Origin: a virus
DNA: 64,000 nt
Strand: one strand, 5' to 3'
IMG/VR virus record: IMGVR_UViG_3300045988_056900
Positions 5,689 through 62,701 of this stretch are shown one piece after another (position 1 is the stretch's first letter; each line of letters begins with the position of its first letter). The notes below the pieces were generated by a model that had not been told where the DNA came from, searched no databases, and saw only the letters and a list, made by a program, of their open reading frames with translations. The translations under genes were made by a program, and so were the position numbers.

Positions 5689-5805
5689 AAACAAATAAAG
5701 AAATTAAGAGACTGTAGAGGGAGACCTTACCCCTTGGTAAAAGATAACATACTAATTAACTGTGTTAGTAACTTTTTTTCGTGAAAACTCGGTAATGGAT
5801 TACAG

Positions 5806-6831
5806 ATGAAAAGATATAATAATTTATTTGACAAAATAGTAACTTTAGACAATTTATATCTAGCGGATAAAAGAGCTAGAAGACAAAAACAACATAGACC
5901 TGAAATAATTAATTTTGATAAGAATAGAGAAAAATTACTTTTAGATCTATAGAAGAAATTAATAGATGGTGAATATAAGACTTCTGAATATTATATATTC
6001 AAGATATATGAACCTAAAGAAAGAGAAATATTCAAGCTTCCATACTATCCAGATAGAATAGTACATCATGCTATTATGAACATTATGGAACCTATTTGGG
6101 TATCATCTTTCATTAAAGGAACTTATAGTTGTATAAAAAATCGTGGTATACATAAAGCTCTGAAAGATGTTAAGTTCGCACTGAAAGATGAAGCCAATAC
6201 AAAATACTGTCTTAAGTTAGATGTCAGAAAATTTTATCCTTCAATAGATCATGATATATTAAAATAGTTAATAAGAAGAAAAGTAAAAGATAAGAAACTA
6301 TTAGTTATATTAGATGAAATAATAGATTCTGCATAGGGAGTACCTATTGGCAATTACTTATCACAATTCTTCGCTAATTTATATTTAACATATCTAGATC
6401 ACTGGATCAAAGAAGAAAAACATATAAAATACTATTTCAGATACGCAGATGATATTGTAATACTTCATAGTGATAAAGACTATTTAAGATAGTTGTTTAA
6501 GGATATGAAGTAGTACTTAGAAGAGAGGCTTAACATTAACTTTAAAGATAATTGGCAAATATTTAAAGTTGACGATAGAGGAATAGATTTCGTAGGGTAT
6601 AAGATATTTCATACTCACACTCTGTTAAGAAAGCATATTAAGAAGAACTTCTGTAAAAGAGTAAGTAAATTGAACAAGAAAGATAACTTAGACAAGAGTG
6701 CTTATCAATAGAAAATATGTAGTTATATAGGTTGGATTAAGTACTGTAATGGTCGTAATTTATTTAGTAAAATGACTAAATATAAAGAGCTATTGCGATA
6801 CATATCAAAAAGTAAGAAGAAGAAAACCTAA
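5806..6831 (+). CDS. DGR reverse transcriptase, read through six in-frame TAGs (5950, 6265, 6334, 6490, 6511, 6709)
   Basis: GVPIGNYLSQFFANLYL is the DGR-RT signature (IGxxxSQ) and FRYADDIVIL is the YxDD box. All fragments share one frame and the gene ends at TAA 6829. Confidence 0.9.
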
Positions 6832-48226: not shown

Positions 48227-48246
48227 AATTAATAATGTTAGTTTGA

Positions 48247-48303
48247 GTCTGTGGAGGGAATCGAACCCTCATTTAACAGTTTTTCCATTTAAACTACACA
48301 GAC
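48247..48303 (-). ncRNA. tRNA-like element lacking an anticodon arm (57 nt)
   Basis: GTCTGTG-TA-GTTT-AAATGGAA-AAAC-TGTTAAAT-GAGGG-TTCGATT-CCCTC-CACAGAC. It has a perfect 7-bp acceptor stem, a D arm with GG and a canonical T arm, but only 8 nt where the anticodon arm should be. Confidence 0.55.
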
Positions 48304-48356: not shown

Positions 48357-48806
48357 TTAGGCGGCTAGCGAAGCCTTTGTTGTACTTGTTTTTCGTACAT
48401 ACGTTTTCTTAAACGCTACAAGGGAAGCTTTGTACTTAGCCTTGTCTTCTTTGCTTTGTTTAATAGATTTTGCTTTAGATTGTTTCATATGAATAATCAT
48501 ATGATCAAACTTAACTTGAGCATCGAGCTGTTTTCTGTCGTATTTATTAAACCTAGGATAATTGATAGATTGAAATACGAAAGTACTTTTTCTCTTTTCA
48601 ACAAGAGCTTTTGCTCTTTCTCGTTTAACTTTTCTACGAGCTTTAAGTTCTTCACTATAGAAGTTTTTTGGTTTAACCTCTTCTTCAGAAGTAATTTGTT
48701 TTACTCGAAATACTCTTCTTTCTGCTTTTCGAGCATTTCTTGCTGCAACTCTCTCTTCACTACGTGCTATTTTATATTCTTCTTTTCTGTTTTTATCTAT
48801 TTTCAT
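48357..48806 (-). CDS. Lys/Arg-rich hypothetical protein ending in -SLAA
   Basis: Intact 149-aa ORF with a TAA stop. Confidence 0.8.
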   Translation of the reverse strand: MKIDKNRKEEYKIARSEERVAARNARKAERRVFRVKQITSEEEVKPKNFYSEELKARRKVKRERAKALVEKRKSTFVFQSINYPRFNKYDRKQLDAQVKFDHMIIHMKQSKAKSIKQSKEDKAKYKASLVAFKKTYVRKTSTTKASLAA

Positions 48807-48831: not shown

Positions 48832-49596
48832 TTATGCTGCTAAAAGTTTTGATTTAGTGTAATAGGTCCAATTGTTATTACTTAAATCTTCAACGGTTAT
48901 TCCGGTGAACTTATCATTGTTTTCGTACTTCTTAGCTAATACTTTTACTTTAGAGAATGCTTCTTCTTTATCATTAGCATCTAAATAATCCGTGTAGAAG
49001 TCTGTACTTTTCATAGGATTATCTTCGCTTTGATTCTGTACTACATAACGGAACTTACGAGTGTTCTTTTTGTTATTTAGCACTTCTCTTCCTTTCTTTA
49101 GGAATTCTAAAACAGAAGCCTTCACCTCATTTATATGAGGTCTACTGGCTAACAGTTCAGCTTTATACTCTTTTTCACGTTGAAATCTAACCTTGATTTC
49201 TTCATCAGTTAGATTAACTGGTTTCGGCTGAACAAACAGTCGTTTTCTAATTAATCGAGTGAACTTCTTCTTCTCTTTCCTAGTATAATGAACTGTAGGT
49301 TCAAATCCAGCGCTTGCTAGAATTTGCTTAATAAGCTCCTTCTTAGCTTGTTTAGCTGTTTTATTTTCCTGACGAGAGTTCTTTCCTACTTCTGTAGTAT
49401 AGCTTTTTTGCTTAACTTTACCAACTATGTTGGTTATTATTACTTTCCCATTCTCACCCTTTGTAATATAGGGAGATGGACCCGGTCTTCTAAATACTTC
49501 TTCTACTTTCTTAGATCTACGTAATTTAGAACGGTTAGTTCTCGATAATTTTTTTCCTTTATGATCTTTATGTTTACCTGATAAATTCTTTTTCAT
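48832..49596 (-). CDS. Lys/Arg-rich hypothetical protein ending in -LLAA
   Basis: Intact 254-aa ORF with a TAA stop. Confidence 0.8.
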   Translation of the reverse strand: MKKNLSGKHKDHKGKKLSRTNRSKLRRSKKVEEVFRRPGPSPYITKGENGKVIITNIVGKVKQKSYTTEVGKNSRQENKTAKQAKKELIKQILASAGFEPTVHYTRKEKKKFTRLIRKRLFVQPKPVNLTDEEIKVRFQREKEYKAELLASRPHINEVKASVLEFLKKGREVLNNKKNTRKFRYVVQNQSEDNPMKSTDFYTDYLDANDKEEAFSKVKVLAKKYENNDKFTGITVEDLSNNNWTYYTKSKLLAA

Positions 49597-49649: not shown

Positions 49650-50159
49650 TTAAGCGGCTAGACAAATAGGAGCTGATTCAATATCAAGTTCAGCTTTGTC
49701 ATTAAAATCTTCTAAGTCTTTATTCAACTTATTAATTTCTATCTGCAGCTTATTCTTTATATTGCTGATGTAAGCTGAAGTGAGTTCCTCACTAATATTC
49801 AGATTCTTTTTGCCTTTAGCTCGCTTTATCTTTGGGTCGATTGTTTTAATCTTCCCTAAATGAAACAGTTGTTCCTGTTTCTCGGATAGTGAAAATATTG
49901 TATAATAGTTATTTTCTGCTGGTAAATCAGAGAACTTCTTATAACCCATATTAATACATTGTAAATACAGTTTCATAAGAATTCGTTCTTCTGCCATTTC
50001 TTGAATCTTCGTTAACAGTACCTTAAGGTCATAATTACGAATAGTTCCTTTAGAAATGATATTTTCGTTTTTAATAATCGTCCAATATTTAGTAATATCT
50101 TTACTAAGTTCATCGCGACGATTTTTTGCATATTTAGATGTAATTGATTTCATATTCAA
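49650..50159 (-). CDS. Coiled-coil hypothetical protein ending in -CLAA
   Basis: Intact 169-aa ORF with a TAA stop. Confidence 0.8.
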   Translation of the reverse strand: MNMKSITSKYAKNRRDELSKDITKYWTIIKNENIISKGTIRNYDLKVLLTKIQEMAEERILMKLYLQCINMGYKKFSDLPAENNYYTIFSLSEKQEQLFHLGKIKTIDPKIKRAKGKKNLNISEELTSAYISNIKNKLQIEINKLNKDLEDFNDKAELDIESAPICLAA

Positions 50160-50209
50160 GTGATTTGTTTTTTAAGTTAATACTTGACCGAAATCGTTTA
50201 CTAGTTAGT

Positions 50210-50274
50210 CATGCATGACAGATTCAAACTGCCGTCCCTCTGATGAGTGCTCTAATCAACTAAGCTAATGCATG
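50210..50274 (-). ncRNA. tRNA-like element lacking an anticodon arm (65 nt)
   Basis: CATGCAT-TA-GCTT-AGTTGATTA-GAGC-(15 nt)-GGCAG-TTTGAAT-CTGTC-ATGCATG. It has a perfect acceptor stem and classical D and T arms. I found no 5-bp stem with a 7-nt loop in the 15-nt linker. Confidence 0.55.
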
Positions 50275-50290
50275 TTATATAATAGAGAAC

Positions 50291-50374
50291 TACCCCATTC
50301 AGTAGTCTCTATTAAAGTAGTACCCCATTCAGTACTATTAATAGATATTGATATGATGAATACCCAGTTCAGTA
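50291..50374. repeat. Three direct copies of the 14-mer TACCC(C/A)(A/G)TTCAGTA
   Basis: Copies at 50291-50304, 50321-50334 and 50361-50374, with 30 and 40 bp spacing. Confidence 0.8.
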
Positions 50375-50950
50375 TTATAAATCATCACGTTCAACAATTT
50401 TTATTTCTTTTGCAAAATAGACCGGTAGAATCCGTCCGTCTGTTGTTTTAGCACCAACATATAGTTTATTTCCTGTTTCAGAAACTCCTACACTTCGGTT
50501 ATGTTCTTTTTCATTCGAATACTTTTGTAAATACTTTTCATTGATATACTTAGAATGTAGTTCTCCGTTCGTACTACTTCTTACTACATCAAATAAAATA
50601 TCTACCATTTTATCCAAATCATTATTATCGGTAGCTTCTTTTAATATGGCATTCATAATACCATAAAAAGCTTCCTCATTTCTTGCTTCTCCAGTTCCAG
50701 ACATTGTGTCTGCTAATTTGATTGCTATATCAGTAATACTCACCAGTCCATGAGCATTAAAGAACCGTTGCCACCATCTAGGACCACTTCCATAGTACAA
50801 GATAATCTGTCCATCCTCTTGTATATCTACTTTTTTAGGTCTTTCGTTAATTCTCCCATTCAAGATCTTAACTTTTGCTAAAACAGCTGGTTCATAAATA
50901 ATTAGCATACGCAAGATATCAACCCGGGAAGGTGATAATCTTCCGTTCAT
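50375..50950 (-). CDS. Hypothetical protein
   Basis: Intact 191-aa ORF. Confidence 0.8.
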   Translation of the reverse strand: MNGRLSPSRVDILRMLIIYEPAVLAKVKILNGRINERPKKVDIQEDGQIILYYGSGPRWWQRFFNAHGLVSITDIAIKLADTMSGTGEARNEEAFYGIMNAILKEATDNNDLDKMVDILFDVVRSSTNGELHSKYINEKYLQKYSNEKEHNRSVGVSETGNKLYVGAKTTDGRILPVYFAKEIKIVERDDL

Positions 50951-51819: not shown

Positions 51820-53736
51820 GTTTATCGTCCCGTTTCGACGGTTAAGATTCAACTTTTTCGATGCTTAACGCACCTCTCACCGTTATTTTATATCGCGATT
51901 AGATGCAATATAAAAGACATAGATCATTGACTAATGGTAAGTCTACCTAGTATTTCCGGATTATCGAAATTCATAGAATTACGGTCGTTTATCTAACGTT
52001 ACCAACTCACAAGCCCATTACTTATAGTATGGCCCACTTGTACCATGCATAGGATTTGTTGTTTATTCTGCTCGAACACGAGGATTTCCACCTCTCATCG
52101 TCTCCTTGTTGCTCAATTGTTATTACTATTGAGTCGAAATGTACTACGCCCTTTAATCTACCGAGACAGGGTGATAGGCGACAGGTTATTAACGAATCAG
52201 CGTTCTCTTTACATATATACTTGCAATATATACTTTAGGAGTTTCTAATGTCAGCGATGACGGTTGGCAGTCTGGGGTGGATCATACTCCTTATCTGACT
52301 ACTTTACAACAGTAGTTTGCTATCTCTGTACTCGCCATTGAACTTCCCAATTTGGTAAAGATTAATAATGTTAACAATTCACTTAGAACAGATTTAACTA
52401 GGCCGGTTCTATTCGGCATTAACTTTCAGATGCAGTAAAGTAACATCATCTGTTACAGTCTTACCTCTCTGGTTCCAGGGTTCTAAGCTGGAGCAGCTTG
52501 GCTCTTACTCATTAATTTATTGTTTTTGACCACTACTAATATCTCCTACTCTGGAATGAGTGTGATAATCTAGCAATGCACCTTTACATATCTTAAAAGG
52601 TATAAGCTCTGCTGTTTTTTACGAGGAGTTTTCTAAGCTTCTCCTTAGTATTATTTATCATTATAATCACACTTGCTAAAGGTGTGTAACGATTAGAATC
52701 AGGGTTATTGCGCCCTCAAACCGCTTAGACACTCTTGGTCTATTCATTCCTCATTCAATTATACTCACACGAACGAATAAGCACGTGAGTCACTTTAGAC
52801 TTGAAAGACGGTATCAATCTCATATACCTCATCCCTTATACGTAAATTCTTTTGCGGCACGCTAGTTACGGTAGCGCACAGGATTGGCTCCTGCTCCCTG
52901 GTAATCAGTCTATTTTCACTATAATTTTAACATAGTTACTTAGGATCATTGCATGTCCAGCCTTCATATCTTTACTTTGTATAAGTATGTACCATAACAC
53001 GGTTATCCTTACATTAGTATCAGTAATTACTCCCTTTATATTATGAACCAATTATCATAAAAACACTAGAGTTAGCCTATTTTTCCAATCAGGACGCATA
53101 GTTGCGTTTTTGTATGAAGCGAGGTTGGAACCCGCTTGTTGCGTTAGTCAGCCATAATGTATTTTTCGATAATCCTTTTCCAAGGGATTATCCAAGAACC
53201 CTTTGTCCTTGTTTCAGCATCGTGTTCATATTCCTTCTTGAGTCACATCTTGATTGACGCATACGAATATAGAGATTTCGTTCTCTTTTTGAGGATTAAG
53301 GATTTCATCTTTTGTAGTTTTTATTTGCTTATTGCTACGAATTCATCTCCTCGGTTTTGAATTAATTTGTAACTAGGGTATCTTCTTGTAGCTCCTATAT
53401 TACGGGTTCTTCACTCTTAATATCACCAGACGGTTCTCATATTAACAGCGCAGGCTATTCACCCTCTCCTGCTTTCTTATACCTTTTTCACCAGTATAAG
53501 TTATTATCCTACCTTTTGAGTATCTCACAGTGTTAGCTGCTACGAAGCATCTCATAACTACTTCTTACATATTCTCGGATTCTGTCTTTTTTCGGGCTAT
53601 GTGTAAATGGACACAAACTCCCTGACGCAGTAGTACTTAAAAACTTCCTTCTGTGACTGCCGGAGTGATTTACGCTATAGTTTTACTCCTCTCGAACTAT
53701 GATATAATTATAGTATTTATATAGCGGCTATTATCA
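51820..53736. other. ~1.9 kb ORF-free, hairpin-rich, high-complexity region; candidate large non-coding RNA(s), strand unknown
   Basis: There is no minus-strand ORF of 60 aa or more. Only two plus-strand loci are listed (52045/52056 and 53157), and both translate as low-complexity. In the stretches I translated, TAA, TGA and TAG all occur in every frame. Confidence 0.5.
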
Positions 53737-58686: not shown

Positions 58687-59101
58687 TTACCACTTAGTTT
58701 TATATTTATTAAAATACTACGAGGCGACTGTCACTATTTCTAGCGCTAAAATCTATTTCACAACCCCATCATTAGTAACAGTTTCTCTTTAAATAAAGAG
58801 TTGTTAACCAGGATACTGTATGCTCCCCTGGGGATATCTCACGCTGCTAAGCGTGTATAATCCATTACATAACTTGTATTGCCAGTTATCTGCTTATTGA
58901 CCTATTCTACTTCACATTGTCGCAGTCAAATGCCTAGATGCCCCATTTAAAGTAGTACTCTTACAAAATTTAACTTATAGTTTGAGTACTACTCCCGATC
59001 TTCCTATCGCTGTTAATGAAAAAACTCTTAGAGAGAAATCGAAAATTAGCGTAAGATTTCTATACGGGCCTCTTATTATTCTTGCTTATTCCATTTTTTG
59101 T

Positions 59102-59157
59102 GGAGCATGAGGGAGTCGAACCCTCGTCCTAACGACTGATTCATAGACCTAACAGTC
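59102..59157 (-). ncRNA. tRNA 3'-half-like element
   Basis: GACTG-(14-nt loop TTAGGTCTATGAAT)-CAGTC-GTTAGGAC-GAGGG-TTCGACT-CCCTC-ATGCTCC. No adjacent 5' acceptor strand or D arm. Confidence 0.4.
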
Positions 59158-59788
59158 AATGAGTTTATAAGATTAATTGAAGTATAACTCGCGTACAGAA
59201 TTAAGCCATTCTTCCTGCTTTATTATTTAACACAGTTCACAGCACTCTCTACAGGTGAGCCTTCGTTATGTTATACAATATCCCTGCTATTTTTACAATT
59301 AATCTTATATTGTGACTAGGTAGGCGACCAAACCTACCTAGCCTATGGTCTTTTACGATATTTAAAGTATTCTCATACTATTAATGCCTTGATAACCTGT
59401 CTTGGAAGTATAGAATACTTTTCAGCTTCTATACGGCATGATGTCTAGCATCGCACTATTCCAAAAATGCCGACTTGATATCATAAGAATGCTATTGCAT
59501 AATATACTCAAAGAGTATAGAATCTGTATTTATATATTGCGCAATTTATATATACATCCTCATGATCTTAGGCACATGATCAGTGGCACGTTGTCATAAT
59601 GTCCTACTCTGGCATCGGTTGTATTACTACACCTTACACTTGTTGTATGCATGTCAATTCATGCATGAGCTGCATCTTCTGGTACTTAGCACATAAAATG
59701 TCATCACCACCTATTAGCTACTTTCTCTAGTTAGGTTATATAGTCAGTATTTCTACTGCTAAAACACTATACCTGGACTATGCGCGGA

Positions 59789-60567: not shown

Positions 60568-60776
60568 ATTTTTGATAATTTGGTTTTAGAATTAAAAAAA
60601 GAACTGTTCTGTATATTCCTATCTCTTATTCTACAGATAACCCCTATCCTTCTCTCCCTTTATCTGTAGATTTACAGATTGCCGTTGAATAGCCATTACA
60701 TAGTAATATGTATTAGGGTTTTGGTATATTTACAGTTCTTTCGGGTTGATTGGAATCCACCATACTAACAATTTAA

Positions 60777-62223: not shown

Positions 62224-62701
62224 TTTTACATAGGCTTTAAAATTGTTAGTTAATAAATATGATGACGTCTGTATACAGCACTATATACAGAATAATTTAC
62301 CGCAGTGCTACGGAGATTTGAGACTAATACTATAAAGCAATAGCGCTCTATTGCACATCTGTTATTAAAGAAATCATTTCCACATATTACTATGTTTAAT
62401 TTAAACCCTCACATGTTTTAGGATTACTCCAGAGTACAAGCAGAAAAGGCTGTCAAACCTAATCTTATCACTCACCTGATTTTAACGTCCGCACGATCGT
62501 AGTATTTGCAATTATCAGTACTAATTAGAGTAATTGCCACCCTTCTTCTCCCGCTTAAAAATACTACTTACGCCCCACAGGCTTGTCATCTTCTGAAGAC
62601 TAGTCTATTCTCACGAACAAACTAGTTGTGTCGAAATTTTTAAACCATTTCTATGCAAAATGCTTCAAAAAACTGTAATAACTTGTTTTAATTATTACTC
62701 T

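Follow-up and report, generated by a model that had tools for sequence, protein, structure and literature searches.

The 64,000-nucleotide stretch of viral DNA held as IMG/VR record IMGVR_UViG_3300045988_056900 (the whole of which is referred to here as the window) carries on its minus strand, at 50209..50274, a tRNA-like element that retains the acceptor stem, D arm and T arm of a tRNA together with a mere vestige of the anticodon arm, and the question raised by this locus is what such a molecule is doing between two phage genes. The region is 98% identical to the crAss-like phage cr113_1 (Crassvirales, Suoliviridae, Loutivirinae, Buchavirus), and on this sequence evidence the source of the window is a Buchavirus, a gut crAss-like phage. 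Two co-oriented hypothetical genes of the replication module, homologues of cr113_1 gp22 and gp23, flank the element, which sits in the 221 nt between them on the same strand as both.

Read directly on the minus strand from 50274 to 50209, the element is CATGCAT TA GCTT AGTTGATTA GAGC ACTCATCAGAGGGAC GGCAG TTTGAAT CTGTC ATGCATG A, that is, 65 nt plus a discriminator A at 50209 (66 nt in all), with no CCA encoded after it. The acceptor stem (5′ strand CATGCAT at 50268..50274, partner ATGCATG at 50210-50216) has seven Watson-Crick pairs; the D arm, GCTT-AGTTGATTA-GAGC (50249..50265), has four pairs, U13.G22 among them, and includes A14, G15 (50260), G18 (50257) and A19 (50256); and the T arm, GGCAG-TTTGAAT-CTGTC (50217..50233), has five pairs, one of them G.U, with U54, U55 and U56 (50226) in its loop. 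The cloverleaf order of acceptor (7 bp), D (4 bp) and T (5 bp) stems is thus preserved, and the tRNA-type tertiary set (U8, A14, R15:Y48, G18, 19:56, U54, U55, A58 and G53:C61) is complete, the exception to the retention of G18 being U18 in one compared sequence, L043. These arms, including the GA in the D loop and the TTT in the T loop, are just as an earlier note on this DNA had described them.

What is absent is an anticodon arm of 5 bp with a 7-nt loop. The linker ACTCATCAGAGGGAC between the D and T arms consists of A26 (50248), the sequence CTC-ATCA-GAG (50238..50247) and a 4-nt variable region, GGAC (50234..50237), of which C48 (50234) is the Levitt partner of G15. The earlier note regarded the element as armless, with a 15-nt linker unable to form an anticodon arm; there is indeed no 7-nt loop, but minimum free energy (MFE) folds and a covarying stem identify CTC-ATCA-GAG as a mini hairpin, such that the element is better described as a tRNA with a miniaturised anticodon arm than as strictly armless. 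Across lineages the linker is 15–16 nt long and can be parsed in the same manner, as 1–2 nt, a 3–4-bp stem with a 3–4-nt loop, and an RGRC variable region. The stub takes the forms CTC-ATCA-GAG, CTT-TTCA-AAG, CTAT-TTA-ATAG, CCT-TTA-AGG, CTC-TTTA-GAG, CTC-GTAA-GAG and CTC-GTAT-GAG, and its stem covaries between lineages (CTC/GAG, CTT/AAG, CTAT/ATAG, CCT/AGG) while the loop sequence is unconserved.

The tRNA-like element exceeds chance expectation. A strict scanner, requiring a T arm with the loop TTYRANN, a directly adjoining 7-bp acceptor stem paired throughout, and a D arm of 4 bp, returns exactly two elements on both strands of the 64 kb, this one and another at 48303..48246, also on the minus strand, and the mean in shuffled sequence is 0.17 elements. 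The element is nonetheless missed by standard tools: ARAGORN does not call it in the window, and a local search with the Rfam tRNA model RF00005 (gathering score 29 bits) fails to match it even at E<=10, whereas full-length orthologues score 65–70 bits. A DNA-pattern search of viral contigs recovers the same Buchavirus clade again, plus chance matches within coding regions of unrelated phages.

The origin of the element is apparent from about 135 viral contigs fetched via the downstream protein (L-numbers are labels of compared sequences; L010 is cr53_1 and L091 is cr113_1). All of these loci share one layout, in which one to three hairpins are followed by a tRNA or tRNA-like element, a conserved trailer and the gene, and the tRNA takes several forms. 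The full form, found in Blohavirus, Buorbuivirus and part of the Buchavirus-like set, is a 74-nt tRNA-Arg(UCU) with the anticodon loop CTTCTAA, and is called by ARAGORN. In some Blohavirus alleles the anticodon loop is split by a 488-nt insertion containing a 141-aa HNH endonuclease open reading frame (ORF); there are also decayed insertions of 322 nt and 271 nt, a scar allele with the anticodon loop TTTTTAA, and a deletion allele from which everything from the D loop through the anticodon loop is gone. These variants occur among Blohavirus genomes that are ~98% identical to each other, and the polymorphic HNH site is present in L010 (3882-4444), L097, L105, L107, L108 and L133. A group I intron is not a good description of the split tRNA, as there is no Rfam intron match and the HNH ORF takes up all but ~62 nt of the 488-nt insertion, which makes a free-standing endonuclease gene the more likely identity. 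The truncated form, to which the window element belongs, is 64–67 nt long and represented by 16 distinct sequences, and the truncated class is monophyletic in a tree of the gp23 protein, with at least five sublineages; according to these sequences the truncated form arose once and persisted.

The truncated element and the phage tRNA-Arg(UCU) have in common an orthologous locus, its flanks, the D-arm sequence, the T-loop UUUGAAU and A19:U56 (L044, L066, L092), and differ in that the truncated element lacks the 5-bp/7-nt anticodon arm and A20 and is 64–67 rather than 74 nt long. This comparison of sequences shows the element to be a descendant of a phage tRNA-Arg(UCU) gene that is now without decoding ability, since an anticodon arm shrunk to a 3-bp/4-nt stub can no longer decode. 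Its arginine identity has been affected as well. Arginyl-tRNA synthetase (ArgRS) recognizes its substrates through the identity determinants A20, C35 and U36. Every full form has A20 (GAATA or GGATA), whereas the truncated forms have U or C there (GATTA, GATA, GACA), U in the case of the window element, so that all three determinants are lacking in the truncated element. The loss of A20 fits a release from ArgRS recognition.

There are several indications that what remains of the tRNA is maintained. First, in each of the 16 distinct truncated sequences the acceptor, D and T stems are paired without exception (16 pairs), and 9 of these pairs have undergone double compensatory changes. Five of the seven acceptor pairs are among them (the L029 lineage has GGTATGT/ACATACC in place of CATGCAT/ATGCATG), as are three of the five T-stem pairs, where the variants are GGCAG/CTGTC, GGGAG/CTCTC, GGAGG/CCTTC, AGCGG/CCGCT and AGTGG/CCACT and G53:C61 is invariant. 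Second, in 500 column shuffles neither the pairing nor the covariation score ever came up to that observed, control alignments with slid 3′ partners pair at only 31–50%, and RNAalifold without a given structure returns the identical three helices. Third, four-fold degenerate sites of the adjacent gene are only 39–62% identical between truncated sublineages, which is near saturation, and a neutral relic would have lost its pairing over such a distance. Finally, G.U pairs are common in the truncated set (U13.G22 in 16/16 and G50.U64, the second T-stem pair, in 11/16), and because these become C.A mismatches on the opposite strand the fold must belong to the transcribed strand. The palindromic character of the window acceptor (CATGCATG), which could have pointed to a DNA site, is incidental, as the GGTATGT/ACATACC acceptor of another lineage is non-palindromic. 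These alignments show that purifying selection has acted over the long term on the three stems and the tertiary core.

The tertiary core includes the elbow, to which the earlier note had drawn particular attention. G19:C56 is the tertiary pair that locks the tRNA elbow, and the note proposed that A19:U56 in the window element is a compensatory change reflecting selection for a folded elbow, calling for a covariation alignment. Among 19 distinct same-site sequences with 9-nt D loops (7 truncated and 12 full), the 19:56 pair is A:U in 15 and G:C in four and is never mixed or unpaired; likewise the Levitt pair 15:48 is A:U in 12 (all of them full) and G:C in seven (all of them truncated), with no unpaired instance. 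A19 and U56 are moreover invariant in 16/16 truncated sequences, in which T-loop positions 59–60 and D-loop positions 16–17 and 20 vary. Selection for a folded elbow is thus well supported by the sequences, and the pair is indeed maintained. It is not, however, peculiar to the truncated element: full-length, ARAGORN-called tRNA-Arg(UCU) genes have A19:U56 too (L044, L066, L081 and the Blohavirus L092 type), so that A19:U56 is older than the truncation, and among the parsed loci G19:C56 is found only in L053-type alleles, which form one nested clade among the representatives in the gp23 tree. About one evolutionary event therefore underlies the 19:56 covariation, and the ancestral state of the locus is probably A:U. 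A separate tRNA of cr113_1, a 91-nt suppressor with the anticodon CUA that is annotated as tRNA-Gln (L091 34127-34214, outside the window), likewise carries U56, in the T loop TTTGACT, and lacks GG in its D loop, ACGATT, and a non-G19:C56 elbow may be common among the tRNAs of this phage; the CUA anticodon implies that TAG is recoded in late genes.

The flanks of the element are as distinctive as the element itself, and all of their features are on the minus strand. The upstream gene (gp22 homologue, 50375..50950) and the downstream gene (gp23 homologue, 49650..50153) encode hypothetical proteins; neighbouring proteins have no usable match in Pfam or PHROGs, and the gp23 homologue is unmatched in both. 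There is no strong sigma-70-type promoter or intrinsic terminator between the two genes. Three tandem hairpins (50280..50396; individually ~50396-50346, 50337-50318 and 50314-50280) lie upstream of the element, the first overlapping the stop codon of the upstream gene. Their stems vary and covary around a common loop motif, CUGAAYNGGG, whose exact matches within the window are confined to this locus, and one to three copies are present 5′ of the tRNA or tRNA-like element in every relative examined, Blohavirus included. The conserved loop suggests a predicted protein-binding site, and a UGAAU motif resembling it is seen also in the T loop and at the gp23 start codon. On the other side of the element a conserved 3′ trailer (CTAACTAGTAAACGATTTCGGTCAAGTATTAAC..., 50154..50208) extends to the start codon of the next gene and is retained 3′ of full tRNAs and truncated forms alike, with the pattern …CTRGTAGAYG…GGTCRAGTATTWAAC…; the sole exact match in the window to its 14-mer GGTCAAGTATTAAC is the trailer itself. 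Neither the hairpin-loop nor the trailer motif is a candidate for a general phage promoter or terminator, as exact matches occur only at the locus and mismatched ones at chance level. An attachment site or integration remnant can also be set aside, as both tRNA halves are present and the cr113_1 annotation is without an integrase.

RNase P, RNase Z and the CCA-adding enzyme can all do without an anticodon arm. The parts of the tRNA that have been kept are those read by these three enzymes, and this, together with the sense orientation of the element between replication genes, leads us to propose that it is an RNase P/RNase Z processing signal punctuating an operon transcript, a reading towards which, by analogy with known systems, we lean with modest confidence. 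RNase P reads the stacked G19-C56 elbow, which RNase Z also recognises, and both enzymes process mascRNA and menRNA, which are without a functional anticodon loop (PMC11693755). Plant mitochondrial t-elements similarly direct RNase P/Z cleavages that form mRNA ends (Forner et al. 2007, PMC1920247). In the phage, the element would be transcribed within the operon RNA. One cut, by RNase P, would fall at 50274, the 5′ end of the element, so that the upstream gp21-gp22 mRNA would finish with the three hairpins and be protected by them against 3′ exonucleases; another, by RNase Z after discriminator A73 (50209), would free the gp23 mRNA with a short, defined leader; and the ~66-nt tRNA-like RNA would remain as a by-product. 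Processing of this kind would have come as a side effect of a working tRNA in the ancestor, and when homing-endonuclease traffic eroded the anticodon loop, decoding would have proved dispensable while the processing role kept the rest under selection. Such an origin of the element by homing-endonuclease erosion is likely, because its relatives show an HNH insertion, decayed copies, and scar and deletion alleles.

We thus propose that the element works like a t-element or mascRNA, with which it shares, in sequence, an intact acceptor/T-arm stack and elbow and no decoding capacity. Plant mitochondrial t-elements are likewise non-decoding, tRNA-derived, cloverleaf-like folds with a well-kept T arm that adjoin protein genes, and RNase P and RNase Z generate mRNA 5′ and 3′ termini at the boundaries of these folds, the mode proposed here (PMC1920247). 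They are, however, organellar, with cleavage mapped experimentally for some, whereas here the host is a bacterium, the carrier a phage and cleavage putative; unlike them, the phage element keeps the complete tertiary architecture of a tRNA, and its full-length tRNA orthologue can be traced at the locus. The mascRNA and menRNA modules at the 3′ ends of MALAT1 and NEAT1 (PMC11693755) are also tRNA mimics with a non-functional anticodon region, recognised at the elbow by RNase P and RNase Z, and the upstream RNA 3′ end made by RNase P is protected by a triple helix, a role for which the hairpins here may be the equivalent. Evolutionarily they are unrelated: in mascRNA the D stem-loop is reduced, the equivalent of the anticodon stem is longer and the junction linker residues are missing, in contrast to the normal D arm, U8/A9, 4-nt variable region and much shorter stub of the phage element. 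Transfer-messenger RNA (tmRNA) and bacterial Y RNA (YrlA; PMC4201824) share the acceptor/T-arm/D-loop mimicry without an anticodon. The element is not a tmRNA, as it has no G3:U70 (3:70 is invariantly U:A), no mRNA-like domain and no pseudoknots, and tmRNA models do not match it; nor is it a Y RNA, there being no long Ro-binding helix and no neighbouring rsr gene, and the mimic standing alone between genes. Without an anticodon arm or a call by any detector it is not functionally a member of the tRNA family either. Full-text literature searches turn up no account of tRNA-like elements with a defective anticodon in phages, crAss-like or other.

Several considerations weigh against a role in transcript processing. 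Both the co-transcription of the element with its neighbouring genes and its cutting by RNases P and Z are steps that we infer. On its own the element has an ordinary folding energy (z about -1), and of seven lineages folded three have an MFE structure other than a cloverleaf, so the case rests on covariation and not on energy; the MFE structure of the window element is the four-way cloverleaf with stub, both alone and within the whole 261-nt intergenic RNA, which folds as three hairpins plus cloverleaf with z = -4.5. The hairpin loops are conserved although simple exonuclease blocks need no particular sequence, which may signify protein binding and something more than processing. A promoter could lie in the conserved trailer, in which case the element would define only the upstream 3′ end. 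Furthermore, processing signals can be far simpler than this, and retention of the D arm and of the tertiary pairs of the core would be in keeping with a function of the released RNA itself.

A second element lends the processing reading some generality. The sister element at 48246..48303 (the "first" armless element), on the minus strand three genes downstream of the one at 50209..50274, ends ~20 nt 5′ of the DNA polymerase start codon, has an 8-nt linker, and scores 44.9 bits against the Rfam tRNA model. A comparison of this polymerase-upstream element in L007, L009, L010, L044, L070, L193 and L194 spans four genera and two Suoliviridae subfamilies, and in no genome examined does it have a 7-nt anticodon loop. 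The anticodon arm is replaced by the 8-nt linker in Buchavirus, by a 4–5-bp stem with a UAU or GUAA loop in Blohavirus and the L044 group, by a 5-bp stem with a 12-nt loop in Buorbuivirus, by an insertion of about 50 nt in cr56_1, and by a non-canonical lower half in Canhaevirus cr10_1 (subfamily Boorivirinae). The Blohavirus version is reported by ARAGORN as 'tRNA-His (atg)' and entered as tRNA-His in the cr53_1 record, and is really a 5-bp stem with a 3-nt loop. A stable hairpin is found immediately 5′ of the element in cr4_1 and cr10_1, and a short hairpin-like inverted repeat is similarly placed in the window (48319-48307).

The most substantial alternative to a processing signal, though unlikely on balance, has the excised ~66-nt RNA working in trans as a stable mimic of tRNA, perhaps a decoy or sponge for some host factor with affinity for the elbow and acceptor stem of tRNAs, its processing being simply a matter of maturation. 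Such a factor might be a defence nuclease directed at tRNAs, a toxin of the nucleotidyltransferase type, a modification enzyme or the CCA-adding enzyme. Conservation extends beyond a minimal RNase P substrate to the D arm, 15:48 and the 4-nt variable region, each genome has two different anticodon-defective mimics, with the polymerase-upstream one in both Suoliviridae subfamilies sampled, and bacterial Y RNAs (PMC4201824) provide a reported precedent for anticodon-less tRNA-like domains able to act in trans. The acceptor sequence is, however, unconserved, with five of seven pairs replaced in one lineage, so recognition in trans would have to be by shape only; nor is there an obvious partner gene, the neighbours having no Pfam or PHROG match and the cr113_1 annotation being without a tRNA enzyme; and both elements are positioned directly 5′ of genes at fixed operon positions, as expected of signals in cis and unneeded in trans. 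A different role in cis, which we consider distinctly improbable, is that of an uncleaved regulatory module in which the fold, hairpins and trailer bind a phage or host protein to control read-through or downstream translation. This would accommodate the conserved CUGAAYNGGG loop over variable stems, in one to three tandem copies at this locus only, the recurrence of the UGAAU-like motif in the T loop and at the start codon, and a trailer that is more conserved than the tRNA-like element. But full-length functional tRNAs at the same place in relatives would surely be excised by RNase P and RNase Z, making cleavage the ancestral state there, and the tertiary nucleotides that have been kept are generic tRNA ones, with no candidate binding protein identified.

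The remaining explanations fare less well. That the element is a neutral relic, a tRNA pseudogene decaying after deletion or homing-endonuclease damage, gains something from the recent disrupted alleles (HNH insertion, scar and deletion) in ~98% identical Blohavirus genomes, which indicate that decoding at the locus is dispensable and damage recurrent, and from the failure of ARAGORN and Rfam to recognise it. Yet across at least five sublineages near four-fold saturation the stems are intact, with nine double changes and the tertiary positions kept, and the stub hairpin covaries too; nor can recent recombinants sharing one allele account for this, as the sublineage alleles differ. Covariation across diverged sublineages effectively excludes a decaying pseudogene, which we regard as highly improbable. 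Use as a working non-canonical adaptor, aminoacylated and employed in translation or tagging, is more improbable again, notwithstanding the intact acceptor stem, discriminator A73 and elbow and the likelihood that a phage probably encoding a permuted tmRNA tampers with translation: a 3–4-nt stub loop of unconserved sequence leaves no anticodon possible, A20, C35 and U36 are missing, there is no G3:U70 for AlaRS, and an acceptor sequence that varies freely holds no conserved minihelix identity set. Almost no credence can be given to a plus-strand hammerhead core, suggested by the motif CTGATGAG at 50240-50247, where the exact octamer CUGAUGAG is present on the plus strand. It has no Rfam match at E<=10 and no GAAA/stem III arrangement, with 3 nt between GUC and CUGAUGA; the octamer is unconserved, the L040 linker GCTCTTTAGAGAGAC being without its complement, and the G.U pairs of the minus-strand fold become C.A mismatches on the plus strand.

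The two loci together raise a broader idea, which is tentative and rather unlikely to hold: that Suoliviridae keep a repertoire of anticodon-less tRNA mimics, with at least two loci per genome, released as stable, trans-acting small RNAs. One locus may have become anticodon-defective before the subfamilies split, and the other may have been exapted in Buchavirus after endonuclease erosion.

Other RNA features are found in the same part of the genome. ARAGORN calls a permuted two-piece tmRNA at 58748-59194 on the minus strand, with the tag peptide GNTSYVMDYTRLAA; the Rfam tmRNA_permuted model gives 40.3 bits on 58839-59160 (E = 1.3e-4), below its gathering score of 47, and this crAss-like phage may therefore encode its own tmRNA, as a candidate. 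Clustered with it in the gene-poor early arm, again on the minus strand, are gathering-level Rfam matches to the Hatchet ribozyme (62474-62600), RAGATH-9 (60597-60753) and RAGATH-20 (59564-59665), and a further such match, to RT-17, is at 5723-5812 on the plus strand. As judged by these matches, the phage arm carrying the element is rich in RNA-processing elements, a context that speaks for the processing reading. A segment of ~1.4 kb at ~52300-53735 (NC_055896 12289-13725) is without an annotated gene in cr113_1 and belongs to the most G+C-rich part of the window (0.38–0.39 vs about 0.32); it could hold a large non-coding RNA, and no Rfam family matches it. Three consecutive small proteins (48357-48806, 48832-49596, and 49650-50159, all on the minus strand) end in ...LAA, resembling the ssrA degron. 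The last gene before the polymerase has the C-terminus LAA, PLAA, QAA, LLAA or AA in five relatives (L006-L010), and since these ends are written with different codons they are apparently selected at the protein level; they could connect with the phage tmRNA or with timed proteolysis.

The locus offers a natural experiment on the body of a tRNA, with intact, HNH-split, scar, deletion and truncated forms at one place in close relatives, and the long-held truncated form isolates those roles of the tRNA body that are separate from decoding. It also provides a clean case of elbow covariation, in which G19:C56 and A19:U56, and G15:C48 and A15:U48, alternate in otherwise homologous molecules. Because standard tRNA finders and Rfam overlook this element, similar ones are probably under-counted in phage genomes. 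If Suoliviridae do keep a repertoire of mimics, these could be shape decoys titrating a host tRNA-directed immunity nuclease, a toxin or a tRNA maturation enzyme, and would then constitute a new class of phage counter-defence or host-takeover RNA. If the element is instead a processing signal, as we favor, then a very abundant group of human-gut phages would punctuate the transcripts of their replication genes by means of host RNase P and RNase Z sites besides ribozymes, with a bearing on the timing and balance of gene expression in these uncultured phages.

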